Shown: positions 861 through 56,294, counted from the first letter of the stretch. The stretch: DNA of 64,000 bases from Massilia sp. (GCA_031398335.1 JANNNC010000045.1:8917-72916); one strand, 5' to 3'. Program-made: numbers and translations. Notes: generated by a model from the sequence alone, not told the origin.

Positions 861-2465
861 ATGCGACTGCGCAAACGGCTGATCGGCTTTGCCGCCACCG
901 TCATTCTATTCACCCTGCTCAGCGGCGCGACTGGCTATTCGGTGGCCTATAAGCTCGTCGGCAGCATGCAGGACAGCCAAGTCAGCATCGAAGCCTTGCG
1001 CAACCAGATGCAGGCGGACATGATGCACGACGCGCTGCGTGCCGACGTCTTCGCCGCTGCGTTCGACGGCCTGCAGGAGGGGCAGCCACACAAGGCCGAT
1101 GCGCTGAAGGATTACGCCGAGCATGTGCAAGTGTTTACCGCGGCCCTGAAGCAGAACGAAGGGCTGGACCTCGATCCTGCCCTTGCGCTTAGCATCGCCG
1201 CAATGCGCAAGGATGTCGACCTGTATATCGCGCTGAGCCGCGAAGCGATCGACCTCGCTTACCGCGATCCGGCGGCGGCGCCGGCACTGATCTCACGCTT
1301 CCTGGTGATTTTCAAGACCCTCGAACAAGAAATGGGCGCCAGTAGCGACCTGATCGAGGAGACGGTCACCCGTGCCAAGCAGGCAGCCGACGCGACGGCC
1401 GCGACATCGATGACGATCATCCTCGTGCTCGGTGGCGCGGCCGTGCTGGCGGTGCTGGTCCTGTCGACATGGATTACGCGCTCAATCCTGCGCATCCTCG
1501 GTGCGGAGCCGAGCGACGTCAAACAACTTGTCAGTGCCGTCGAGCGCGGCGAACTCTACGCCCGGCCTGCGCTGCGTGCCGGCGACAACGAGAGCATCAT
1601 GGCGATGCTGGTGAAGATGGTCGCGACGCTTGGCGTTACCGTGACCGAGGCCCGTCGCGCCACCAACAAAGTGGCGTCGGCCAGCGCCGACCTGCGCCAG
1701 GGTAATCACGCTCTGTCGGCACGCACCGAGCATCAGGCCTCGGCGCTCGAAGAAACAGCTTCATCGATGGAAGAACTGACCGCGACGGTGCGCCAGAACG
1801 CCGACAATGCGGGCCAGGCCAACGCGCTGGCCGTTGCGGCGGCATCCGCGGCCTCCGAAGGCAGCCGGGTGGTGTCGCGCGTGGTCGATACGATGGACAC
1901 AATCAAGGGCAGCGCGCAGAAAATGACGGAAATCATTGGTGTCATCGATGCCATCGCATTCCAGACGAATATCCTGGCGCTGAACGCGGCGGTGGAAGCG
2001 GCGCGCGCAGGCGAGCAGGGCCGCGGCTTTGCCATCGTCGCTACCGAAGTGCGCGCCCTCGCCCACCGCTCGGCCGAGGCGGCAAGGCAAATCAAGGGCT
2101 TGATCAGCGCTTCGGTGAATGCGGTCGACGATGGCGCGCAGCTGGTGGGCCAGGCTGGCGACGCGATGCGCCAGATTGTCGAGGGCATCCACCGGGTGGC
2201 GGACGTCATGGCCGACATCAAGGCTGCCAGCGCCGAGCAAAGCGCCGGGATCGAACAGGTCAACGAGGCCATCATCCAGATGGATCAGGTAACGCAGCAG
2301 AACGCCGCACTGGTCGAAGAGGCTGCGGCGTCGGCCGAATCGTTGCGGAACCAGGCCGTGTTGCTGACCAAATCGCTCAGTGTATTCACACTGGAGGCAG
2401 GCGAACAGGCCCATGCCGCGGGACCTGCGCGTCCGGGGCAGGCACGGCGCCTGGCGCTAGCCTGA
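861..2465 (+). CDS. Methyl-accepting chemotaxis protein
   Basis: Internal ATG at 861 follows AAAGGAAAC. It has an N-terminal TM helix and the conserved MCP signalling hairpin '[37 protein letters not shown]'. Confidence 0.9.
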
Positions 2466-2726
2466 ATGTAAGAGCCTGGAAGACAGGCAAAGGACCGATG
2501 GAATTGCCGGTGCTGGCGTGAAGGAAGTCAGGGTATGTTATAAAACATAATGTTGACATTCATGCACATGTCAACAAAAACAATGACTTGCGGAACGAAA
2601 TATCTGACTTTTCGGTTATTAGTGTTGTATTGATACGTCGGAACCAGGGTTGAAACGGGGCTGTCCCAAGCAGGGATTGCCGTTTCTGCACTACAATACG
2701 AGATTCCCCAATCCGACTATCCCCCT

Positions 2727-3530
2727 GTGTCTAACCTTGTAGAAATACGTGATCTCGAGTTTGCCTATGGCGATCGCAAGATCCTGTCGAACCTGCGCAT
2801 GGATTTCCCCCGCGGCAAGCTCATTGCTGTCATGGGTGGTTCCGGTTGCGGCAAGACCACGGTGCTGCGCCTGATTGGCGGACAGATCCGTCCACAGCGC
2901 GGCGCGGTCTGGGTGGGCGGCGAAGTCGTGCACGAGCTGCGCACCGACGGCCTGTACCGCCTGCGCCGCAAGATGGGCATGCTGTTCCAGTTCGGCGCGC
3001 TGTTCACTGATCTCACCATTTTCGATAACGTCGCCTTCCCGCTGCGCGAGCACACCGACTTGTCGGAAGAGCTGATCCGCAACCTGGTGATGATGAAGCT
3101 GAACGCGGTCGGCCTGCGCAATGCCTCCAAGCTGAAACCGGCCGAGATTTCCGGCGGCATGGCGCGCCGCGTGGCGGTGGCGCGCGCCATCGCGCTCGAC
3201 CCCGAACTGATCATGTACGACGAGCCCTTCGCCGGCCTCGACCCCATCTCGATGGGCCTGACCGCCAATTTGATCCGCAACCTGAACGACGCGCTCGGTT
3301 CGACATCCATCCTGGTCTCGCACGATGTGAACGAAACCTTCGCCATCGCCGATTACGTCTACTTCATGTCGGCCGGCAAGATCGTTGCCGAAGGCACGCC
3401 GGCCGAGCTGCGCGTCTCCAAAGACCCGTATGTGAAACAGTTCGTCAATGCCGAACCCGATGGCCCGGTGCCCTTCCACTATCCAGGCAAATCGCTGATC
3501 GACGACCTGGGCCTGGGGGCGAAGCGATGA
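2727..3530 (+). CDS. mlaF: Phospholipid ABC transporter ATP-binding protein MlaF
   Basis: Walker A 'GGSGCGKTT', signature 'ISGGMARR' and Walker B 'LIMYDEP'. It is the first gene of an mla-type cluster. GTG start. Confidence 0.9.
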   Translation: MSNLVEIRDLEFAYGDRKILSNLRMDFPRGKLIAVMGGSGCGKTTVLRLIGGQIRPQRGAVWVGGEVVHELRTDGLYRLRRKMGMLFQFGALFTDLTIFDNVAFPLREHTDLSEELIRNLVMMKLNAVGLRNASKLKPAEISGGMARRVAVARAIALDPELIMYDEPFAGLDPISMGLTANLIRNLNDALGSTSILVSHDVNETFAIADYVYFMSAGKIVAEGTPAELRVSKDPYVKQFVNAEPDGPVPFHYPGKSLIDDLGLGAKR

Positions 3531-5702: not shown

Positions 5703-6350
5703 ATGAAACCAATCGCCCAACTCATTGCCACCGCCGCAACCCTCGTGTTCGCCACCAGCGTCATCGCCGCGCCAGCCCCGGCCACCAACGAGGCGCCGGA
5801 CGTGCTGGTGAAACGCATCAGCGCCGACGTGATCGACACCGTGAAAGCCGACAAGGACATCCAGGCCGGCAACCGCAACCGCATCATGGAACTGGTCAAT
5901 TCGAAGATCCTGCCGCACGTCGACGCCGAGAAGATGACGGCCCAGGCTGCCGGCCGCTTCTGGCGCCAGGCGACGCCGGAACAGCAAAAGCGCCTGTCGG
6001 AAGAATTCCGCACGCTGCTCGTGTACACGTATTCGGGCGCGCTGTCGCAGATCAAGAACGAAACGGTCGAATTCAAGCCGATGCGTTCGGAGTCGACCGA
6101 CACCGACGTCGAAGTGCGTTCCCAGGTGAACGTCGCCCGCGGCGAGCCGATCACCCTGAACTACCGCCTGGCGAAGGACACCGGTAGCTGGAAGATCTAC
6201 GACATCAACGTGCTGGGCGCGTGGCTGGTCGAGACCTACAAGGGCACGTTTGCTGCCGAGATCAACAAGTCGGGCGTCGACGGCCTGATCACCAAGCTGG
6301 CCGACCGCAACAAGCAACTGGCCAACAAGCCGTTGAAGGCCCCGAAGTAA
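5703..6350 (+). CDS. mlaC: Periplasmic phospholipid-binding protein MlaC (toluene tolerance Ttg2D family)
   Basis: Internal ATG at 5703 gives a signal peptide MKPIAQLIATAATLVFATSVIAAP. Its position in the mla cluster supports the call. Confidence 0.85.
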   Translation: MKPIAQLIATAATLVFATSVIAAPAPATNEAPDVLVKRISADVIDTVKADKDIQAGNRNRIMELVNSKILPHVDAEKMTAQAAGRFWRQATPEQQKRLSEEFRTLLVYTYSGALSQIKNETVEFKPMRSESTDTDVEVRSQVNVARGEPITLNYRLAKDTGSWKIYDINVLGAWLVETYKGTFAAEINKSGVDGLITKLADRNKQLANKPLKAPK

Positions 6351-46823: not shown

Positions 46824-48119
46824 CTACAATTTGCTAGTGCCGAGCGACTCGCCAAGCCGCTTGCCCAAACAAAGTAAGGTCACCGTCGGCGGCAGCCCCC
46901 ACGGCTCCGGAATCACCGACGCATCGCACACGAACAACCCCGGCGTGGCCGTCTGCAAATTTGCATCGACTCCCTCCCCGATGCGCACGCTGCCGCCCGG
47001 ATGCGCCGCGAAATGCCAGGATGTAAAGATGTGATGCGCCCCCGCCTCGCGCAGGATCGCCTTCGCCATCCCGACCCCATGCTTCAATTTTTGACGGTCG
47101 CTGTCCTGCAGCGTTTTATCCGCCCAGCGCGGCCCGACGCGGCCGCCGATGGCGTCGCGGATCTTGACCATCATCGACAGGGTGCGCCGGTGCGCAAACA
47201 GGCGGTCGACGCGGCCGACCTGCAGCGCAAAGGCCTGGTACATCGGCTGCGGCAGGGTCAGGTCGGCCAGGGCGACGCCTGCGTCATGTAAATGCAGGCC
47301 GCCCGCCATCGGCACCTCGGCGCCGCCGTCGATGTCGTCCACGCTGCCCATCACCGCCACCACCGGATCGCTGAAGAAGGGAGATTCGCGCGGTCCCAGG
47401 CCTGAACTGTGCAACAAGCGCGGGCTACCGAGGCCGCCGCCGGCGAGCACGACGATCGGCGCGAACAGGGTGCGCAGCTTGCCGCCCACCTGCACCTCGA
47501 CCCCGGCCGCGCGGTCCCCTTCCACCAGCACCCGCAGCACGCGGGCACGGTCGACCAGTTGTGCGCCGTGGCGGCAGGCCTCATCGAGAAAATCGCGCGC
47601 CGTCCACTTGGCGCCGAACGGACAGCCGTAGACGCAGCGCCAGCAGCCGCTGCGGCAGGACGCGGGCCGGATCATTTTTTCCAATTTTTGCCAGTCGAGC
47701 GACAAGGCGCGCGCCGCCGTCATCATGCGCGCCGCCATCGGGCCAATTAACTTGTCCGGCAGGGGGGCCATCGGCAGTTCGGCGCGCAAGGCGGCGAGCG
47801 CCGGTTCGAGATCGATGCCGTAGCGCGCGAACAGCGCCTGCGGCGGCGGGGCGGCGGTCGCAAAATTGATGGCCGAGCTGCCGCCGGCCGTGATGCCGGC
47901 CACCAGCAGCGAGGCGTCGCGCTGCACATACGCGCCCTTGCCGGGGACCGCGGCCATGCCCGCCATCTGGCCAAGCGTCCCCTTCAAGGGGTCGGCGCCG
48001 CCCTGTTCCAGCACCAGCACGCGCATGCCGGCTTGGGCCAGTTCGCGCGCCGTGCTGGCGCCGCCCGGACCGCTTCCGACGACGATCGCATCATACGAGG
48101 ACTGAAAAATAGGAAGCAT
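46824..48119 (-). CDS. GMC-type FAD-dependent oxidoreductase
   Basis: Start at ATG 48119. 'YDAIVVGSGPGGAS' FAD-binding motif. 431 aa. Confidence 0.75.
   Translation of the reverse strand: MLPIFQSSYDAIVVGSGPGGASTARELAQAGMRVLVLEQGGADPLKGTLGQMAGMAAVPGKGAYVQRDASLLVAGITAGGSSAINFATAAPPPQALFARYGIDLEPALAALRAELPMAPLPDKLIGPMAARMMTAARALSLDWQKLEKMIRPASCRSGCWRCVYGCPFGAKWTARDFLDEACRHGAQLVDRARVLRVLVEGDRAAGVEVQVGGKLRTLFAPIVVLAGGGLGSPRLLHSSGLGPRESPFFSDPVVAVMGSVDDIDGGAEVPMAGGLHLHDAGVALADLTLPQPMYQAFALQVGRVDRLFAHRRTLSMMVKIRDAIGGRVGPRWADKTLQDSDRQKLKHGVGMAKAILREAGAHHIFTSWHFAAHPGGSVRIGEGVDANLQTATPGLFVCDASVIPEPWGLPPTVTLLCLGKRLGESLGTSKL
48079..48102. repeat. Direct repeat copy 1 (ACGACGATCGCATCATACGAGGAC)
   Basis: 24/24 identical to 50325-50348. 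It lies inside the 5' end of the oxidoreductase gene (encodes SSYDAIVV on the minus strand). Confidence 0.95.
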
Positions 48120-48224
48120 GGCGGGAAGGGCGGTTGGGTGCCCGATGCTAGCACGCGCAGCCGCGGTTCCCACGCGTTCCCAAGTTTTCAATGCCAGTTT
48201 CGAGTCTTGCTGTGGCAGGAGTCA

Positions 48225-48437
48225 CTACATACCCGTATTGGCTGGCCACGGGGTGAAAAGAGCAAGAACTGCATTGCTGCCAGAAATCGTCACGCCCATG
48301 CCTTGATACTGATTCGTTATCGGGGTCTGATCAGAAAATTCATCGAATGTCAGCGTGATCGGCTCCGCCCACAGGTGAGCAGAAAAACCTGCCAACAGAG
48401 CAAGGCTGCCGGCGAAAGTAGCGATACGGTTGCTCAT
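48225..48437 (-). CDS. Small secreted protein fragment (70 aa), possibly truncated
   Basis: ATG 48437 follows AAGGAG. Signal peptide MSNRIATFAGSLALLAGFSAHLWA. It ends abruptly after ~45 mature residues. Confidence 0.4.
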   Translation of the reverse strand: MSNRIATFAGSLALLAGFSAHLWAEPITLTFDEFSDQTPITNQYQGMGVTISGSNAVLALFTPWPANTGM

Positions 48438-48702
48438 TGGAATGCTCCTTAACAAGATTTGCATCCCTTGCAAAACGTCAATGTTATGGGGGAGCATGAG
48501 CTTCGACTTCGACTAGAGTGGACCTCCACCGGCCATGACGATCAATCAGCGACACTAAATTTTTTCGCCTACGCCGGTTCCATCACGCAGTCCAACTGGT
48601 TTCTACTTGAGCTGATGTACTACACCGACGCAGGATAGGCTTTCGCCACTACTTGTAATGCAAGCTCGGATGGCGCCGGCGCGAGCAGAGCGGCAGGCCC
48701 GT

Positions 48703-48725
48703 AAAAAACGCCCACATCGTGGGCT
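48703..48725 (-). terminator. Rho-independent terminator after the antitoxin gene
   Basis: On the minus strand: GCCCAC-GAT-GTGGGCG followed by T6. Confidence 0.75.
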
Positions 48726-48729
48726 TGGT

Positions 48730-49044
48730 TCAGAGCGCGGCGATCTCGTCGAGCAACTTGGGGTTGCGATCCATCAGGCTCAGTAGGATGGCGGCCTGGG
48801 CATTCGGCTTGGCGGTGCCCTGCTCCCAGTTCTTGATGGTGCGCGCCTCGGTTCGCAACCGGCGTGCGAACACAGGCTGAGACACGTGGAGCTTCTCGCG
48901 CACAGCGCGGACCCTAGCCGGTGTCATTTCCGGCGGAGCCTTGCGCTCTACTTCCGAGGTGCGGAGCGTAGCCTTTCCCTGGCGCGCGCCTTCCAGGGCG
49001 TCGAAGCCTTCCATCAGGTCGGAAAAAATATCTCGCTTGGTCAT
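48730..49044 (-). CDS. XRE-family HTH antitoxin (HigA-like)
   Basis: 104 aa. HTH '..VREKLHVSQPVFARRLRTEARTIKNWEQG..'. ATGA overlap with the toxin gene upstream. Confidence 0.8.
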   Translation of the reverse strand: MTKRDIFSDLMEGFDALEGARQGKATLRTSEVERKAPPEMTPARVRAVREKLHVSQPVFARRLRTEARTIKNWEQGTAKPNAQAAILLSLMDRNPKLLDEIAAL

Positions 49045-49387
49045 TTTTTGGCACTCCTTGCCTTGATTTCTGCTTCAAGACGCTGCTTCAGCATCTTGCG
49101 TTGGTCCGGGGTGAGGTCGTGCGCTTCGTCCTTGTCGTAGACGGTGAACAGCCAGAACTGGTCGGCCGCATCCTTCCAGAAGTAGATGATGCGCAAGCCG
49201 CCGCGCTTCCCCTTGCCGCGCCGTTCGTCGGCATACCTGATCTTCCGTAGCCCCCGGTCCCCTTGATCACGTCGCCGGCCTCGGGGTCCTTCATCAGCTC
49301 GCTCTGCAGCTCCTTGAACGATGCGTCGTCGAAATATTCGTCGCGCAAGCGCTGAAAAGGAGGGAGCTCGATAAAGGTGGCTTTCAT
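49041..49387 (-). pseudogene. RelE/HigB-like toxin, disrupted by a 1-nt frameshift
   Basis: The N-terminal half 'MKATFIELPPFQRL..DPEAGDVIKGTGG' (frame of ORF 49088..49387) continues as 'LRKIRYADERRGKGKRGGLRIIYFW..FWLFTVYDKDE' in the frame of ORF 49041..49400. The switch occurs at the G/C run around 49248-49256. Confidence 0.7.
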
Positions 49388-49492
49388 GTAGTGAACCCAA
49401 GTTGGGGATATAAGGATGGCTTTTTTTTGTAACTCGTTGCGGAAACTCCGCTATTTGCGGGGTTTCCGGCCTCCATTGTCCGCTGCGGGATG

Positions 49493-50071
49493 CTACCGAG
49501 CAAGGGCTTCCGATGCAGGTTTTACAACCCTCATCACGCTGGCACGGGAGACACCATAGGTGCGTGCCAAGGAGCTGATCGATTGGCCAGTCTGATGCTG
49601 CTGTAGCATTGCCGCCCGCTGGGCATCCGTCGTGCTGGCTGGGCGGCCCAAGGTCTTGCCCTCAGCCTTCGCCCGCGCCAGGCCGGACTGGGTGCGTTCC
49701 ACCAGCAGATCGCGCTCCATCTCGGCCACGGCGGCCAGCATCAGCTTGCCGGCGGCGCTGGTGAGGTCGAGCTTCCCCAGCTGCAGGACGATGACCTCAA
49801 TGCGGCGAGCGGCCAGCGCCTTGATCGTGGCGCCGACGTCCTGGGCATCACGGCCGAGGCGGTCGAGCTTTGTCACCACCAAGGTTTCGCCGTCGCGGAT
49901 CTGGCTGAGCATCTTGGCGAACTGCGGGCGCTGCGCCGCCGAGACCTTCCCCGACACGCCCTCGTCGGCATGCCAGAAGTCGATGGCATAGCCGGCCGCC
50001 TCGATCTCCCGGCGCTGGTTCTCCGTCGTCTGTTCCTTCGTGTTGACCCGGCCGTATCCGAAAATTGCCAT
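49493..50071 (-). CDS. Resolvase/invertase-type serine recombinase homolog with Asn at the catalytic Ser position
   Basis: 192 aa. 'GYGRVNTKEQ' against the consensus 'GYxRVSTxxQ'. 'KLDRLGRD' is conserved. C-terminal HTH. Confidence 0.85.
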   Translation of the reverse strand: MAIFGYGRVNTKEQTTENQRREIEAAGYAIDFWHADEGVSGKVSAAQRPQFAKMLSQIRDGETLVVTKLDRLGRDAQDVGATIKALAARRIEVIVLQLGKLDLTSAAGKLMLAAVAEMERDLLVERTQSGLARAKAEGKTLGRPASTTDAQRAAMLQQHQTGQSISSLARTYGVSRASVMRVVKPASEALAR

Positions 50072-50087
50072 TTGCTCTCACTCCGTT

Positions 50088-50127
50088 GTCCAAGGACGTC
50101 CAATAGCGTCCAATAACGTCCATATTA
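50088..50127. repeat. Four phased 10-bp repeats GTCCA(A/T)NNNN upstream of the recombinase
   Basis: GTCCAAGGAC, GTCCAATAGC, GTCCAATAAC and GTCCATATTA run in tandem. They are followed by the perfect palindrome TGAACATGTTCA (50131-50142). Confidence 0.8.
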
Positions 50128-50324
50128 CATATGAACATGTTCAAAAGTAAGTAGACTATTTTATGAACATTTCAGAGCACGGCCGAGCCGACCTGTCCAC
50201 AAACGGTCGATTGTGGTTAGGCAGGCTCGCCTGACTGCTCAGCTGTGTACAATAGTTTGCCCAGCTTCGGCAGACGGTATATAGCCGAGCAGTTCCCGCG
50301 TCGGTGGTGAGCCAGGAAACCCCT

Positions 50325-50348
50325 ACGACGATCGCATCATACGAGGAC
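50325..50348. repeat. Direct repeat copy 2 (ACGACGATCGCATCATACGAGGAC)
   Basis: 24/24 identical to 48079-48102. It lies 60 nt downstream of the msrA stop. Confidence 0.95.
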
Positions 50349-50408
50349 CACAAATGGGGTGCTTGGCGGGAAGCACTCCCTTGACCACGCGGATGCGATG
50401 CGCTCGCA

Positions 50409-50930
50409 TCAGGCGCGATGGGGCAGTTTCCAGTCGGGCCGCACGAAGTGGCACGTATACCCGTTCGGTATGCGTTCCAGGTAATCCTGGTGCTCCGGCT
50501 CGGCTTCCCAGAATGGGCCTGCAGGCGCGATCTCGGTGACGACCTTGCCGGGCCACAGGCCGGATGCGTCGACGTCGGCAACGGTGTCCTCGGCCACGCG
50601 CCTTTGCTCATCATTCAGGTAAAAAATGGCGGAGCGGTAGCTGACGCCGAGGTCGTTGCCCTGGCGGTTGGGTGTGCTCGGGTCGTGAATCTGGAAGAAA
50701 AATTCCAGGATCTGGCGCAAGCTGATCCGGGCCGGATCGGACACGACTTCGAGCGCTTCGGCGTGCGTGCCATGGTTGCGGTAAGTCGCGTTGGGCACGT
50801 CGCCGCCGGTATAGCCGACGCGGGTGGACAGTACGCCGGGCTGGCGGCGCAGCAGCGCCTGCATGCCCCAGAAGCATCCGCCTGCCAGGATGGTGGTTTC
50901 AGTGTGCGCGGTCATCGTCGATTCTTTCAT
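50409..50930 (-). CDS. msrA: Peptide-methionine (S)-S-oxide reductase
   Basis: '[11 protein letters not shown]' active site and 'GYTGG..PNATY'. The start is ambiguous (50930 or 50915). Confidence 0.9.
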
Positions 50931-51073
50931 TGTGGTGGAAGGCCGCATCCTGCGCGGTGTTAAGTACTCGACCGGAAATAAATGTGAATTCTGGCAGCCA
51001 AAACACATTTATTTTTGGGCGAGTACTTTAGCGCTTCATGATAACGGCTCCTCCCGTTTGAACGCGCACCGCC

Positions 51074-51766
51074 TTATTTTTTCGCCGGCAGCACCGTCCG
51101 CAAGCCATGCGTCACCACCAGCGGAAACACGCTCGCATGGTCCTCGTCCGCAAACCCCTTTACTTGCGTGCGCAGGGCCGGATAACGGTACGCCTTCAAG
51201 GCAGTGTCGAACTCGCGCAGGTCGGCCAGCATGTCGGCGTCTTCTTCAAGCCGCGCGCGCTTCTTGCCGGGCGCGAGGGTTTCGCGGCTGCCGATGCCAA
51301 AATAAACGGTCGCCGGCAGCTCGCGGTGGCGCTCGCCGTAGGCTTCCAGGCGGTCGAACATCACGCCGGCGTCGTACCAGAGCGAGGGGCTGCCGAGGAT
51401 GTAGTGCTCGAACAGGCGCGGTTCCGTGAACAGGATCTGCAGGCCGAGCAGGCTGCCGTAGGAATGGCCGACGAAGAACTTGCGCTTCATGTCGGCGCGG
51501 TAGTCGTGCTTGCGCGGCACGGTCGGCGTGTCGTCGCGGCGGCGGCTGAACGTCCCCGTGTCGCCCTTGGCGTAGGACAGGCCGACCACGATCGTCTCTT
51601 CCATGCCCGCATGTTTGCTCAGGCGCTGCGAGATGTTGCGCACGACCGGAAAGGCGTAGTTGGCGTCGGTGACGAACACCACCGGGTACTCGCGCGTGCC
51701 CTCGCGGTAGGAATCGGGCAGGGCGACGAAGACCTGGTAAACATCTTTGTATGCAGTTTGTTTCAC
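51074..51766 (-). CDS. Alpha/beta hydrolase (putative esterase, IroE/esterase-D-like)
   Basis: 'YPVVFVTDANY' and nucleophile 'VGHSYGS'. 230 aa. Confidence 0.7.
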   Translation of the reverse strand: MKQTAYKDVYQVFVALPDSYREGTREYPVVFVTDANYAFPVVRNISQRLSKHAGMEETIVVGLSYAKGDTGTFSRRRDDTPTVPRKHDYRADMKRKFFVGHSYGSLLGLQILFTEPRLFEHYILGSPSLWYDAGVMFDRLEAYGERHRELPATVYFGIGSRETLAPGKKRARLEEDADMLADLREFDTALKAYRYPALRTQVKGFADEDHASVFPLVVTHGLRTVLPAKK

Positions 51767-51858
51767 TGTGCCGGCACGACAATAAGCCTGCTATGATCTG
51801 GCGCGCATCTGCCCGCGGCGATCCCGCGGCAGCCTTTTTCGTGTCCGTGAGAGAGACC

Positions 51859-53994
51859 ATGAATCGTCCACAAATGCTCATCATCGCAGCCAGCCTGGCC
51901 GTCGCCGGCGCCGCCTTCGCAGCACCCGCCGGATCCGGCACCGTGCTCGACGCCTCGAACCCCTTTGCCAAGCCAAGCGCGCTGCCGTTCAATTACCCGG
52001 CCTTCGACAAGATCAAGGACGAGCACTTCCTGCCGGCCTACGCTGCCGGCATGCGCGAGCAGCTGCGCGAAGTGGCCGGCATCGCCAACAGCGCCAAGGC
52101 GCCGACCTTCGAGAATACGATCGTCGCCATGGAGCGTTCCGGGCAGATGCTCTCGCGCGTCTCGGCCGTGTTCTCGAACCTGCAGACCGCCAACACGAAC
52201 GACCGCCTGGACGCGGTCGACCGCGAGATGTCGCCGAAACTGGCCGCCCACAGCGATGCGATCTACCTGAACCCGAAGCTGTTCAAGCGGGTCGAGACCC
52301 TGCACGCCAAGCGCGACAAGCTGGGCCTGGATGCGGAAGCGACCTTCCTGCTCGAGCGCTACTACAAGGAATTCGTGCGCGCCGGCGCCAGACTCTCCGG
52401 CGCCGACAAGGAAAAGCTCAAAGCCTATAACGGCCAGATCGCCTCTCTGCAATCGGACTTCTCGCAGCGCGTGCTGAAGGAAGCGAATGCCTCGGCGCTG
52501 GTGGTAAACACCCGCGCCGAACTAGCCGGCCTGTCGGACGCCGAGATCACTGCCGCCGCCGCCGAAGCAAAGAAGCGCGGCCTGGACGGCAAGTACGTCA
52601 TCGGCATCGCCAACACCACGATCCAGGCGCCATTGGCCAGCCTGACGAATCGCTCGGTACGCGAGCGCCTGCAAGCCGCCTCGATGAACCGCGGTAGCCG
52701 GGGCGGCGAGTTCGACACGCGCGAGCTGGTCCTGAAACTGGCGAAGCTGCGCGCCGAACGCGCGACCCTGCTCGGCTACCCGAACTACGCCGCCTATTCG
52801 CAGGAACTGGAAACGGCGAAGAACCCGGCCGCCGTGAACAAGCTGCTGGCCGAACTGGCCAAGCCTGCAATCGGCAACGCCCGGAAAGAAGCGGCCGAGA
52901 TGCAGAAGATTGTCGACGCCCAGAAGGGCGGCTTCCAGGTCGCCGCCCACGACTGGGCGTATTACACCGACAAGGTGCGCGCGGCCCAGTACAACTTCGA
53001 CGAGAACCAGCTGCGCCCGTATTTCGAGCTGAACAACGTATTGGTCAATGGCGTCTTCTTTGCCGCGACCAAGGAGTTCGGCATCACGTTTAAAGAGCGC
53101 AAGGATTTGCCGGTCTACGACCCGGACGTGCGCACCTTCGACGTGTTCGACCACGACGGCAAGCAGCTGGCGATCTTCCTGTTCGATCCCTACGCACGCG
53201 GCAATAAGCAGGGCGGCGCCTGGATGAACGAATACGTGTCGCAGTCTCACCTGCTGGGCAAGCATCCGGTCGTGGGCAACCATCAGAACATCCCGAAGCC
53301 GCCTGGTGGCGAGCCGACCCTGCTGACCTACGACGAAGTGCGCACCATGTTCCACGAGTTCGGCCACGCGCTGCACGGCATGTTCTCGAACGTGAAGTAC
53401 CCGCATTTTTCGGGCACCAGCGTGCCGCGCGACTTCGTCGAGTATCCGTCGCAGGTCAACGAGATGTGGGCGATCTGGCCCGAGGTGCTGTCGAACTACG
53501 CCAGGCACCATAAAACCGGCGCGCCGATGCCGAAGGAATTGCTCGATAAGGTCATCGCGTCGAAAAAATTCAACCAGGGCTTCATGACCAGCGAATACCT
53601 GGCCGCGTCCCTGATCGACCAGCGCTGGCACCAGCTGACCCCGGCGCAGATCCCGACTGACGTGCTGGCCTTCGAAGCGGCCTCGCTGAAGGGCGCCGGC
53701 GTCGACTTCGCCCCGGTGCCGCCGCGCTACCGCACGACCTATTTTTCGCACTCGATGAACGGCGGCTACTCGGCCGGCTACTACGCGTACCTGTGGAGCG
53801 AAAAACTCGACGCCGACACGGTCGAGTGGTTCAAGGAAAACGGCGGCCTGTCGCGCAAGAACGGCGACCACTTCCGCAAGACCCTGCTCTCGCGCGGCGG
53901 GACCACCGAGGCGATGAACCTGTTCAAGGATTTCCGCGGGCGTGATCCGGTGATCGAGCCGCTGCTGGAACGCCGTGGGCTGACCGGTAATTGA
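51859..53994 (+). CDS. dcp: M3 family peptidyl-dipeptidase (Dcp-like), copy 1
   Basis: Signal peptide from ATG 51859 and zinc motif 'HEFGHALH'. 711 aa. Confidence 0.9.
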   Translation: MNRPQMLIIAASLAVAGAAFAAPAGSGTVLDASNPFAKPSALPFNYPAFDKIKDEHFLPAYAAGMREQLREVAGIANSAKAPTFENTIVAMERSGQMLSRVSAVFSNLQTANTNDRLDAVDREMSPKLAAHSDAIYLNPKLFKRVETLHAKRDKLGLDAEATFLLERYYKEFVRAGARLSGADKEKLKAYNGQIASLQSDFSQRVLKEANASALVVNTRAELAGLSDAEITAAAAEAKKRGLDGKYVIGIANTTIQAPLASLTNRSVRERLQAASMNRGSRGGEFDTRELVLKLAKLRAERATLLGYPNYAAYSQELETAKNPAAVNKLLAELAKPAIGNARKEAAEMQKIVDAQKGGFQVAAHDWAYYTDKVRAAQYNFDENQLRPYFELNNVLVNGVFFAATKEFGITFKERKDLPVYDPDVRTFDVFDHDGKQLAIFLFDPYARGNKQGGAWMNEYVSQSHLLGKHPVVGNHQNIPKPPGGEPTLLTYDEVRTMFHEFGHALHGMFSNVKYPHFSGTSVPRDFVEYPSQVNEMWAIWPEVLSNYARHHKTGAPMPKELLDKVIASKKFNQGFMTSEYLAASLIDQRWHQLTPAQIPTDVLAFEAASLKGAGVDFAPVPPRYRTTYFSHSMNGGYSAGYYAYLWSEKLDADTVEWFKENGGLSRKNGDHFRKTLLSRGGTTEAMNLFKDFRGRDPVIEPLLERRGLTGN

Positions 53995-54131: not shown

Positions 54132-56294
54132 ATGAACCGTCCTCACCTCCTGCTGCTTGCCGCCAGCGTCGCCGTGGCCAACCTGGCCTATGCCCAGCCG
54201 GCCACGCCTGTCGTGCCCGCAACGCATACCCAGCCCGCCACGGCCTTCGACGCGTCGAACCCGTTCGCCGCCAAGAGCACGCTGCCGTTCGAATACCCGG
54301 CCTTCGACAAGATCAAGGACGAACACTTCGGCCCGGCCTACCTGGAAGGCATGCGCCAGCAGGCGGCCGAGATCGAGGCGATCGCCAACAACAAGGCGGC
54401 GCCCACCTTCGACAACACGATCGTCGCGATGGAGCGCTCGGGCCAGCTCCTGAACCGCGTCGGCGTCGTCTTCGGTACCCTGTCCGGCTCGTACACCAAC
54501 GACACCCTGAAAGCCCTGGACAAGGAAATGGCGCCCAAGCTGTCCGCCCACAGCGACGCGATCCGCCTGAACCCGACACTCTACGCGCGCATCAAGGCGC
54601 TGTACGACAAGCGCAGCAAGCTCAAGCTCGACGCCGAGTCCGTCTACCTGCTCGAGCGCTACCACACCGATTTCGTGCGCGCCGGCGCCAAGCTGTCGAA
54701 CGCGGACAAGGAAAGGCTGAAGGCGTATAACAGCCAGCTGGCGACCTTGCAGACGACCTTCGCGCAAAACGTGCTGAATGAATCGAATGCGTCGGCCCTG
54801 ATCGTCGACACCCGGGCGGAACTGGCCGGCATGTTGGATAAACAGATCGACGCTGCCGCCGTCGAAGCGAAGAAGCGCGGCAAGGACGGCAAGTTCGCCA
54901 TCCCTGTGGTGAACACCACCGGCCAGGCCGGCCTGTCGGTGCTGACCAATCGCGCGACCCGCGAAAAGCTGCTGGCGGCGTCCATCGCACGCGGCTCGCG
55001 CGGCGGCGAATTCGACAATACGGAAGAAGTCCTGCAAATCGCCAGGCTGCGCGCCGAACGCGCCGCCCTCTTGGGCTACCCGAGCCACGCGGCCTACATG
55101 CTGGAAGACCAGACCGCGAAGAACACGGAAGCCGTCAACAGCCTGCTGGCCGAATTCGCCAAGCCGGCCGTGAACAACGCGCGCAAGGAAGCGGCCGAAA
55201 TCCAGAAGGTGATCGATGCCGAGAAGGGTGGTTTCCAGCTCGCCGCCCACGACTGGGCCTTCTACAGCGACAAGGTGCGCGCCCAGCGCTACGCCTTCGA
55301 CGCGGCGCAGCTGCGTCCCTACTTCGAACTGAACCGCGTGCTGGTCGACGGCGTCTTCTTTGCCGCCACCAAGGAATTCGGCATCACTTTCAAGGAACGC
55401 AAGGACCTTCCGACCTATAACGAAGACGTGCGCACCTTCGACGTGTTCGACGCCGACGGTTCGCAACTGGCCATCTTCACGTTCGACCCGTACGCGCGCT
55501 CGAACAAGCGCGGCGGCGCCTGGGCGAATGCCCTGGTCGGGCAGAGCAGCCTGATGGGCACCAAGCCCGTCATCGCCAACAACCTGAACGTGGCCAAGCC
55601 GGCCGCGGGCGAACCGACCCTCTTGACCTACGACGAAGTGCGCACCACTTTCCACGAGTTCGGCCATGCGCTGCACGGCATGTTCTCGAACGTGAAATAC
55701 CCGCGCTTCTCGGGCTCGCGCGTGCCGCGCGACTACGTCGAGTTCCCGTCGCAGGTCAACGAGATGTGGATGGCCTGGCCGGAAGTGCTGGCGAATTACG
55801 CCAAGCATTACCAGACCGGCGCGCCGATGCCGAAAGAGCTGCTCGATAAAGTGCAGGCCTCGCAGCAGTTCAACGAAGGCTTCCGCACCACCGAGTACCT
55901 CGCCGCCTCGCTGCTGGACCAGAGCTGGCACCAGCTGAGCGCCTCGCAGATCCCGACCGACGTGCTGGCGTTCGAAGCGGCCGCGTTGAAAAAGGCCGGC
56001 GTCGATTTCGCACCGGTGCCGCCGCGCTACCGCACGACCTATTTCTCGCACGTGTTCTCGGGCGGGTATTCGTCGGGCTACTACGGTTACCTGTGGGCCG
56101 AGAAGCTGGACGCCGACACCGTGAACTGGTTCAAGGAAAATGGCGGCCTGACGCGCAAGAACGGCGACCACTTCCGCAAGACCCTGCTCTCGCGCGGCGG
56201 CACGCTGGACGCGATGCAGATGTACCGCAATTTCAGCGGGCGTGATGCGCAGGTGCAGCCGCTGCTGGAGAAGCGTGGGTTGACCGGGCAGTAA
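54132..56294 (+). CDS. dcp: M3 family peptidyl-dipeptidase (Dcp-like), copy 2
   Basis: 720 aa. Colinear with copy 1 and sharing many identical blocks, e.g. 'TYDEVRT.FHEFGHALHGMFSNVKYP'. Has its own signal peptide. Confidence 0.9.
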   Translation: MNRPHLLLLAASVAVANLAYAQPATPVVPATHTQPATAFDASNPFAAKSTLPFEYPAFDKIKDEHFGPAYLEGMRQQAAEIEAIANNKAAPTFDNTIVAMERSGQLLNRVGVVFGTLSGSYTNDTLKALDKEMAPKLSAHSDAIRLNPTLYARIKALYDKRSKLKLDAESVYLLERYHTDFVRAGAKLSNADKERLKAYNSQLATLQTTFAQNVLNESNASALIVDTRAELAGMLDKQIDAAAVEAKKRGKDGKFAIPVVNTTGQAGLSVLTNRATREKLLAASIARGSRGGEFDNTEEVLQIARLRAERAALLGYPSHAAYMLEDQTAKNTEAVNSLLAEFAKPAVNNARKEAAEIQKVIDAEKGGFQLAAHDWAFYSDKVRAQRYAFDAAQLRPYFELNRVLVDGVFFAATKEFGITFKERKDLPTYNEDVRTFDVFDADGSQLAIFTFDPYARSNKRGGAWANALVGQSSLMGTKPVIANNLNVAKPAAGEPTLLTYDEVRTTFHEFGHALHGMFSNVKYPRFSGSRVPRDYVEFPSQVNEMWMAWPEVLANYAKHYQTGAPMPKELLDKVQASQQFNEGFRTTEYLAASLLDQSWHQLSASQIPTDVLAFEAAALKKAGVDFAPVPPRYRTTYFSHVFSGGYSSGYYGYLWAEKLDADTVNWFKENGGLTRKNGDHFRKTLLSRGGTLDAMQMYRNFSGRDAQVQPLLEKRGLTGQ

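Follow-up and report, generated by a model that had tools for sequence, protein, structure and literature searches.

In homology-facilitated illegitimate recombination, an event combines one homologous anchor with one illegitimate join (PMC3240628), and the orphan immunity-gene arrays at type VI secretion system (T6SS) loci are related displacement scars (PMC5361080). The dusA-specific islands, which carry DAI tyrosine integrases, show 21-bp semiconserved attL/attR sites together with replaced and remnant 5′ ends (Farrugia et al. 2015, PMC4482086). The locus considered here lies in a 64,000-nt stretch of DNA from Massilia sp. (GCA_031398335.1, JANNNC010000045.1:8917-72916; hereafter the window, to which all coordinates refer), in which a 2.2-kb islet stands between msrA and a GMC/flavin adenine dinucleotide (FAD) oxidoreductase gene (oxred), bounded by a perfect 24-bp direct repeat that duplicates part of the 5′ end of oxred. 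A sequence-only reading of the window had taken this arrangement for the attL/attR signature of an integrated element. As detailed below, the locus is a decayed oxred-stub scar with relics of an island, an insertion sequence (IS) and a gene, i.e., a scar of a known kind that gives no sign of a new insertion mechanism, and we consider it somewhat probable that the repeat is a by-product of general, rather than site-specific, recombination in a hypervariable slot.

The repeat and the empty sites

The 24-mer ACGACGATCGCATCATACGAGGAC occurs exactly twice in the window, at 48079-48102 and 50325-50348, on the same strand and with a 24/24 match, and no further match with up to three mismatches is present in the window, where shuffled sequences lead one to expect none. 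Its minus-strand translation, SSYDAIVV, corresponds to codons 7-14 of oxred, and copy 2 lies 60 nt past the stop codon of msrA. The similarity of the two copies extends imperfectly beyond the 24-mer on the upstream side of the gene, i.e., the msrA-proximal side, with 82% identity over 22 nt; including the 24-mer, the copies are 84.9% identical over 53 nt (seven mismatches and one gap), and all eight differences fall outside the 24-mer. A single segment of the related locus L001 (5989-6044), comprising 12 nt of leader and the first 44 nt of oxred, aligns to both 48076-48131 and 50322-50377. What is duplicated is thus the msrA-oxred junction, imperfectly (85%) over 53-56 bp, and the repeat forms the perfect core of this duplication. 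The repeat itself, its coding content, its distance from msrA and the weaker similarity next to it had all been seen correctly in the sequence-only reading, as had the base composition of the islet, which contains stretches with a GC content of 0.51-0.56 (48050-48650 and 50000-50300, at both islet ends) vs. 0.60-0.73 in the flanks.

An independently assembled Logan contig (L039, from SRR20217203, 2911 nt) covers 47623-50513 and spans both junctions with 99.2% identity, differing from the window by four substitutions and one 20-nt difference in repeat number. Because this independent assembly carries both junctions and the toxin frameshift described below, these features are real, and the repeat is not the assembly artefact that had been named as a possible refutation. 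An exact scan of genome contigs and metagenome contigs for the 24-mer returned no match, the nearest orthologue differing by one base.

The relatives used for comparison are 38 loci retrieved with the oxidoreductase protein, almost all of them from Massilia, to which the locus L048 was added to give 39. The oxred orthologues of the 38 loci, from Massilia and relatives, are given at 82-90% amino-acid identity; the range of the retrieval was 58-90%. Exact-protein look-ups for msrA and oxred gave no match and hence yielded no empty site at strain level, and the nearest oxred homologue is 92% identical. In three relatives (L001, L003 and L004), msrA is followed after 20-50 nt directly by oxred, with a single copy of the sequence. 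Relative to these empty sites, the window carries a 2.2-kb insertion bracketed by a duplication of about 56 nt, as had been proposed. Neither the insertion nor a second oxred 5′ copy was found in any of the 38 relatives or in L048, no integrase was found upstream of oxred in the 38, and the resolvase, the toxin-antitoxin (TA) pair and the secreted-protein fragment of the islet are likewise missing from all 38 oxred loci; relatives without this cargo but with both 24-mers, which would have spoken against an insertion, did not turn up. Apart from L039, no further copy of the 2.2-kb unit came to light, and no recurrent use of the site was seen.

The interval between the M3-peptidase gene (dcp) and oxred behaves as a slot whose contents differ even among the closest relatives (about 90% nucleotide identity). 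It holds an esterase gene and msrA in L001 and L004, msrA alone in L003, about 2 kb of other DNA in L005 and an FMN_bind_2 gene in L048. An esterase gene adjoins oxred in L002, L006, L008 and L010, with an esterase remnant in L007, and L013, L014 and L016 show no esterase or msrA match upstream of oxred, with dcp homology reaching to within about 100 nt of the gene. These slot observations cover L001-L017 and L048, upstream of position 6001 (5522 in L048).

The native start and the orphaned stub

All 119 retrieved oxred homologues start M-x-P-x-[F/L]-x-x-S-Y-D-A-I-V, the commonest form being MLPIFRSSYDAIV, whereas none of the 119 begins MWSSYD. Upstream of copy 1, within 40-80 nt, lies GTG[C/G]TAGCATCG, which at least 14 Massilia species, and L048 as well, carry equally far from the ATG; it stands about 40 nt upstream of the ATG in L005-L007, L009, L011-L017, L019, L034, L038 and L048. 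From its conserved position, the motif GTGCTAGCATCGG is probably the extended −10 promoter of oxred itself. The homology of this upstream stretch to the relatives stops at 48155-48182. The motif is absent where msrA (L001, L003, L004) or an esterase gene (L002, L008, L010) abuts oxred. Since both the N-terminus and the upstream motif follow the genus norm, copy 1 is a normal Massilia oxred start with a normal promoter, which contradicts the earlier proposal that an element had rebuilt the start of the gene. Across L001-L017 and L048, the promoter motif was observed only in loci where no gene abuts the oxred start codon.

At copy 2, the codons read AAG CAC CCC ATT TGT GG- TCC TCG, and the flank hardly differs from the spacer between msrA and oxred in L001 (GCATCGCATCCGCGTGGTCAA). 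This is the decaying stub of an MHPI-type allele whose start codon has changed from ATG to AAG and from which one base has been deleted; MHPI-type N-termini do occur within the oxred family. The view of copy 2 as an orphaned duplicate of the gene's 5′ end thus holds insofar as it is an orphaned oxred 5′ stub, but the stub belongs to a different allele, and it is not the ancestral TTG-W-SSYDAIVV start suggested for this position, which finds no counterpart among the homologues.

Origin of the repeat

The explanation we favour, with a confidence slightly above even, joins two variants of the slot, either of which could be the incoming one. One would have had msrA abutting a promoter-less oxred, as in L001 and L004. 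In the other, oxred would have had its own genus-typical promoter, with remnants of an island (res-resolvase-TA), of an IS3 element and of a PEP-CTERM gene before it. The exchanged DNA would have recombined homologously at one end, in a shared flank, and its other end would have been broken in oxred codon 15 and joined illegitimately inside the IS3 transposase gene, a product of the type expected from homology-facilitated illegitimate recombination. The outcome would be a 56-nt orphan stub beside msrA, a relic patchwork and the intact other allele; the stub has since lost its start codon and one base, and decay has reached the toxin gene too. The order and direction of these events, and the type of join, are what we infer from the anatomy of the locus.

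The perfect 24-mer needs nothing exotic under this explanation, and the insertion need not be called unexplained, as it had been. The identity of the two alleles over 24 nt is explained by strong conservation, which in this gene sets in with codons 7-14 (SSYDAIVV, where the FAD-binding fold begins); upstream of them the alleles differ as orthologous alleles do. Pairs of orthologues share a mean of 18.4 of the 24 bases in the 24-mer vs. 11.5 of 22 just upstream, and the nearest share 22-23 of 24. The last 20 bases of the 24-mer are identical in three other species (L003, L004 and L007), and L004, the nearest orthologue, matches at 23 of 24 positions. In contrast, if an in-situ duplication had decayed uniformly, the chance that all eight differences would fall outside the 24-mer is (29/53)^8 = 0.008, which makes an in-situ duplication such as a target-site duplication unlikely. 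As the differences between the copies follow the conservation profile of the orthologues, recombination between slot variants is favoured over in-situ duplication. The join between the oxred stub and the IS3 relic lies between two truncated genes.

Several observations weigh against recombination between slot variants. The microhomology at the junction amounts to 2 nt at most (GG), and the illegitimate joining itself is deduced from the junction anatomy. The nearest genome (about 90% nucleotide and 92% amino-acid identity) is too distant for direct reconstruction of the event. Scans of oxred for a shift in lineage (sliding identity and informative sites, with the nearest genome at about 90%) show an L007-like patch at 47920-47520 that does not start at the junction. 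Finally, 24/24 identity is at the upper end for orthologous alleles (1 of 276 pairs), and the 24-bp stretch may have served as the crossover or may have been homogenised.

This last point leads to a Campbell-type integration on short homology, which is possible though doubtful. DNA in which the promoter of oxred and its first 14 codons were already joined to the IS3 relic would have been anchored on 24-53 bp of homology by RecA-type or single-strand-annealing recombination of circular or linear DNA, so that the 24-mer would be the crossover and the body of oxred the recipient's. A single crossover yields exactly this topology, with the homologous segment directly duplicated on either side of the insert; the identity of the copies exceeds that of any orthologue found (23/24 at most), and the first 200 nt of oxred show no donor-like shift in affinity. 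About 24 bp is close to the minimum length reported for efficient RecA-dependent recombination in Escherichia coli. However, this route needs two rare events, an illegitimate fusion of codon 14 to IS3 and then a crossover on very short, partly mismatched homology, and neither a free form nor another copy of the unit came to light. Unlikely, too, is a decayed site-specific island, according to which a tyrosine-integrase island of the L049/L045 kind integrated at the start of oxred, supplied a substitute 5′ end and promoter in the manner of dusA islands, and later lost its integrase and most of its cargo, with attL and attR left behind. Together, the imperfect direct repeat around its perfect core, the orphaned 5′ end and the intact gene do make up the signature described for dusA islands (PMC4482086), homologues of the resolvase module sit in islands with PF00589 integrases, AlpA-like and DUF4224 genes, and the islet core itself is a piece of such an island. 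Yet there is no integrase in the islet, as the sequence-only reading had said, or in the flanks, which are collinear with the relatives, and three island integrases gave no tblastn match in the window. The site is not recurrently used (0 of 38 relatives, nor L048), and the 5′ end and promoter supposed to be island-borne are genus-native. On its island side the core adjoins a truncated IS3 relic, so that arm sites would have nowhere to lie and a deletion would have to have ended precisely at the edge of the core. In L045, the integrase gene (2294-3310) directly follows a cytochrome c gene (1509-2147), and no oxred was called in that locus. The wider proposition that oxred codons 7-14 are an unrecognised attachment site for L049-type islands of Oxalobacteraceae, carrying a replacement promoter and start, with this locus as a decayed example, or in a more exotic version that a small serine recombinase integrates at the 24-mer, we regard as decidedly unlikely.

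That the small resolvase inserted the islet through a new integrative reaction leaving a 24-bp repeat is very improbable, even though it is the sole recombinase gene of the islet, is intact and has a conserved res-like site upstream. This conserved site (50072-50215) lies at least 110 nt inside the junction, behind the IS3 relic, and the other islet end is a truncated gene. The module recurs in at least six other contexts, a direct-repeat search of L041, L045 and L046 found none flanking it, and none of eight context loci is similar to the oxred region. Serine recombinases exchange strands at a 2-bp overlap, which also counts against a 24-bp repeat of this origin. Close to negligible is the probability of a transposase target-site duplication or an assembly artefact. 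A direct repeat does flank an insert, but its imperfect extension reaches 53-56 nt and shows differences of the allele type, neither terminal inverted repeats nor a transposase gene are present, and the independent assembly holds both junctions.

The islet between the copies

Patched together from several pieces, the islet has at least five breakpoints within its 2.2 kb, and every part of it is a relic in nature. Its ends are a break in an IS3 gene and a truncated PEP-CTERM-type gene, and its core is a deleted island fragment, so the ends are not the attL and attR of a discrete integrated element, as had been claimed. No terminal inverted repeats of the islet were found. The features are collected in Table 1, and the patchwork is described below in gene orientation, starting after the stub.

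Table 1. Features of the msrA-oxred interval and its flanks, in window coordinates
Feature	Coordinates	Strand	Evidence
oxred, intact GMC/FAD oxidoreductase gene, 431 aa, N-terminus MLPIFQSSYDAIVV	46824..48119	-	Pfam GMC_oxred_N (5.5e-21) and GMC_oxred_C
Copy 1 of the ~56-nt duplicated msrA-oxred junction: 24-mer (48079-48102), codons 1-6, 12 nt of 5′ untranslated region (5′UTR)	48076..48131	-	Alignment to L001 5989-6044
Native-type oxred upstream region with conserved GTGCTAGCATCGG motif (48142-48154)	48132..48182	-	Motif conservation in relatives
70-codon N-terminal fragment (signal peptide and ~45 aa), PEP-CTERM-type secreted protein	48228..48437	-	phmmer
35-nt promoter-like relic (TTACAA...TATCCT)	48628..48662	-	97% with L041, L049 and L050; function putative
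Intrinsic-terminator-like hairpin and T-run, after antitoxin gene	48710..48724	-	
Helix-turn-helix (HTH) antitoxin gene, NadS/MqsA-like, intact	48730..49044	-	Pfam and NCBIfam; 81% aa to L049 antitoxin
PF06296-like toxin pseudogene, 1-nt deletion in G-run (plus-strand C-run 49251-49255)	49041..49387	-	Two overlapping reading frames
Small serine recombinase gene, resolvase/invertase type, 192 aa	49493..50071	-	PF00239 2.7e-32 (residues 3-139), HTH_7 (142-182)
Conserved res-like region upstream of resolvase: TGAACATGTTCA palindrome (50132-50143), TGTTCA/TGAACA motifs, 10-bp tandem repeats (50088-50122)	50072..50215	-	Conservation; site function putative
Decayed relic, last ~35 codons of IS3-family transposase gene (orfB), cut at both ends	50216..50324	-	Plasmid IS3 matches
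Copy 2, orphaned oxred 5′ stub: 24-mer (50325-50348), decayed codons 1-6 reading (K)HPIC-, L001-type 5′UTR	50322..50377	-	Alignment to L001 5989-6044
msrA	50409..50915	-	PMSR 8.8e-54; 3′ flank 50378-50408 nearly identical to L001 msrA-oxred spacer

Over 100 nt, the IS3 piece (109 bp) shares 78% identity with the 3′ end of the IS3 transposase coding sequence on a Massilia putida plasmid and also matches 74 further plasmid IS3 genes. The similarity proper covers 50229-50322, and the stretch from 50216 to the stop codon of the relic (50218-50220) was assigned by inspection. The piece is truncated precisely at the stub on one side and about 9 nt past its own stop codon on the other, it carries indels, and no terminal inverted repeat accompanies the roughly 100 nt of the orfB 3′ end that remain. 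Because only this 3′ end is left, with indels and without an inverted repeat, the IS3 remnant is a relic rather than an element. The islet end on the side of copy 2 (GGGGTTTCC...) was considered as an inverted repeat of the Tn3 type; this was rejected as it has no partner and is the coding tail of the IS3 transposase.

The conserved stretch in front of the resolvase gene resembles a res or crossover site where flanks are exchanged. Homology to L041, L045-L047 and L049 ends at a sharp boundary at about 50209-50215, with the boundary about 40 nt further in for L043 and L044, and the module 50215-49515 (about 140 nt of upstream sequence and the resolvase gene) recurs at 77-84% identity in L041-L047 and L049, the contexts being otherwise different. 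The 12-bp palindrome TGAACATGTTCA is unique within the window. The region of about 140 nt also holds AACGACCGTTTnTGAACAGG and TGTTCATAAAATAG, and its equivalents lie at 163-300 in L041, 7866-8000 in L045 and 4767-4895 in L049. Between the palindrome and the ribosome-binding site of the resolvase gene runs a 10-bp tandem repeat, GGACGTTATT with variants (50088-50122), present in three copies in the window, in five in the near-identical strain L039 (about 395-445) and in one or a degenerate copy in the other homologues; this tract may be prone to slippage, affecting resolvase expression. The resolvase gene itself, recognised as such in the sequence-only reading, is intact and is the only recombinase gene of the islet. 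Its NCBIfam match is to a Mpi-like invertase, below the family cutoff, and it has more than 6800 homologues, with 80-91% identity in Massilia and soil metagenomes.

The next two genes had been called a HigB/HigA-like pair. A toxin and an HTH antitoxin are indeed present, but with a PF06296-like toxin and a NadS/MqsA-like antitoxin the pair is not strictly HigBA, and the toxin gene is a pseudogene with a −1 frameshift. With one G added, it encodes a 115-aa toxin that is 85% identical, end to end, to the intact toxin of L049, and L039 carries the identical frameshift. The pair is therefore not an intact TA operon, the antitoxin being intact but the toxin frameshifted.

Further on, the 35-nt piece at 48628-48662 precedes an Exc-like/DUF4224 gene pair in the islands L041, L049 and L050 and may be the promoter or operator of an island excision module, a suggestion drawn from its position and conservation. 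Its sequence, GCATTRCAAGTAGTGGCGAAAGCCTATCCTGCG (35-41 nt), is found at 3258-3292 in L041, 2430-2464 in L049 and 3428-3468 in L050, with 93-97% identity although the surrounding contexts are unrelated or no more than about 80% identical; repeats of the ATGTCAGGT type come before it in L041 and L049. The secreted-protein fragment, which the sequence-only reading had also noted, is confirmed by its signal peptide and by matches confined to the N-terminus: in proteins of 157-343 aa, the similarity is limited to the first 65-70 residues, and the closest of them with a type assigned has a PEP-CTERM domain. These matches came from an exhaustive HMMER search, whereas a word-indexed protein search with the 70-aa fragment returned only the fragment itself. 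Its open reading frame ends where the native oxred promoter sequence begins, and no relative has a homologue of it upstream of oxred. A relationship to the PEP-CTERM gene of L041 was rejected, the two being unrelated, and GGGGTCTGA at 48322, tried as an inverted repeat, was rejected for lack of a match and lies inside the fragment. No tRNA genes are present near the islet or in the related islands, and Rfam gave only chance sub-threshold matches.

The same order of res-like region, resolvase, toxin and antitoxin is found in the metagenome contig L049, at 79% nucleotide identity and with an intact toxin; about 750 bp of L049 is missing from the islet before the 35-nt piece. L049 also has genes for replicase/PriCT, Arc-like, AlpA-like, DUF4224 and NinX proteins, and the islands L045 and L046 have tyrosine integrase genes (PF00589). 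From this shared gene order, the islet core is a deleted fragment of a larger family of integrative or plasmid-like islands of the L049/L041 type.

Other observations in the flanks

Within oxred, a stretch of 400 nt (47520-47920) is markedly closer to M. jejuensis (L007) than to L001, L002 or L004, with informative sites at 39:13, 37:15 and 47:10 and balanced flanks, which suggests an older homologous exchange inside the gene. Beyond msrA, before the esterase gene, lies a stretch of about 70 bp that L001 does not have and that contains a 25-nt inverted repeat (50962-51028; 88% complementary, with a 17-nt loop). The inverted repeat has no other copy in the window, and Rfam gave a spurious sub-threshold miRNA match; the hairpin could be a terminator or a small inserted hairpin element. 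Further out lie two tandem M3 peptidase (dcp-like) paralogues (51751-53994 and about 54235-56000+) with about 76% DNA identity, an arrangement common to several relatives.

Comparison with known systems

The locus resembles homology-facilitated illegitimate recombination in that foreign or variant DNA lies beside homologous DNA, one junction joins unrelated truncated sequences, and displaced or incoming gene fragments are kept with no recombinase-specific sites. It departs from the typical case in that the stub duplicates a gene start, an unusual though possible geometry, and in that the microhomology is only about 2 nt; the scans along oxred located no homologous crossover, and the assignment to this class is a proposed one. 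Among site-specific systems, the dusA-type integrase island is the closest analogue. In both, the insert sits at the 5′ end of a protein gene and is bordered by an imperfect direct repeat whose conserved core measures about 21-24 bp; on one side only a remnant of the 5′ end is left, while the gene on the other side is intact. Unlike dusA islands, however, the locus has no integrase and no recurrent use of the site in 39 relatives, its functional 5′ end and promoter are native, and its insert is a 2.2-kb relic patchwork.

The res-tnpR-TA modules of Tn3-family transposons were reportedly treated by Lima-Mendez et al. in 2020. Like these, and like plasmid multimer-resolution and addiction modules, the islet combines a res-like site (with a putative res function), a small serine resolvase and an adjoining type II TA pair in one block. 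Unlike members of the Tn3 family, it lacks a DDE transposase and terminal inverted repeats of 38 bp, and its repeat measures 24-56 nt instead of the 5 bp of a Tn3 duplication. The replicase, AlpA-like and DUF4224 genes of L049 make the parent family look like an integrative or plasmid-like island rather than a Tn3 transposon.

Implications

The locus is a caution for the reading of genome sequences: a perfect repeat that duplicates a gene end around a recombinase and a TA pair can mimic attL/attR, and it is the relatives that reveal an allele stub and relics. If the minority reading of the repeat as an att site were true, oxred would provide a new protein-gene attachment site of the dusA type. 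Apart from the origin of the repeat, the comparison documents that the dcp-oxred slot is hypervariable in Massilia and that the resolvase module, with the conserved site upstream of it, is widespread.

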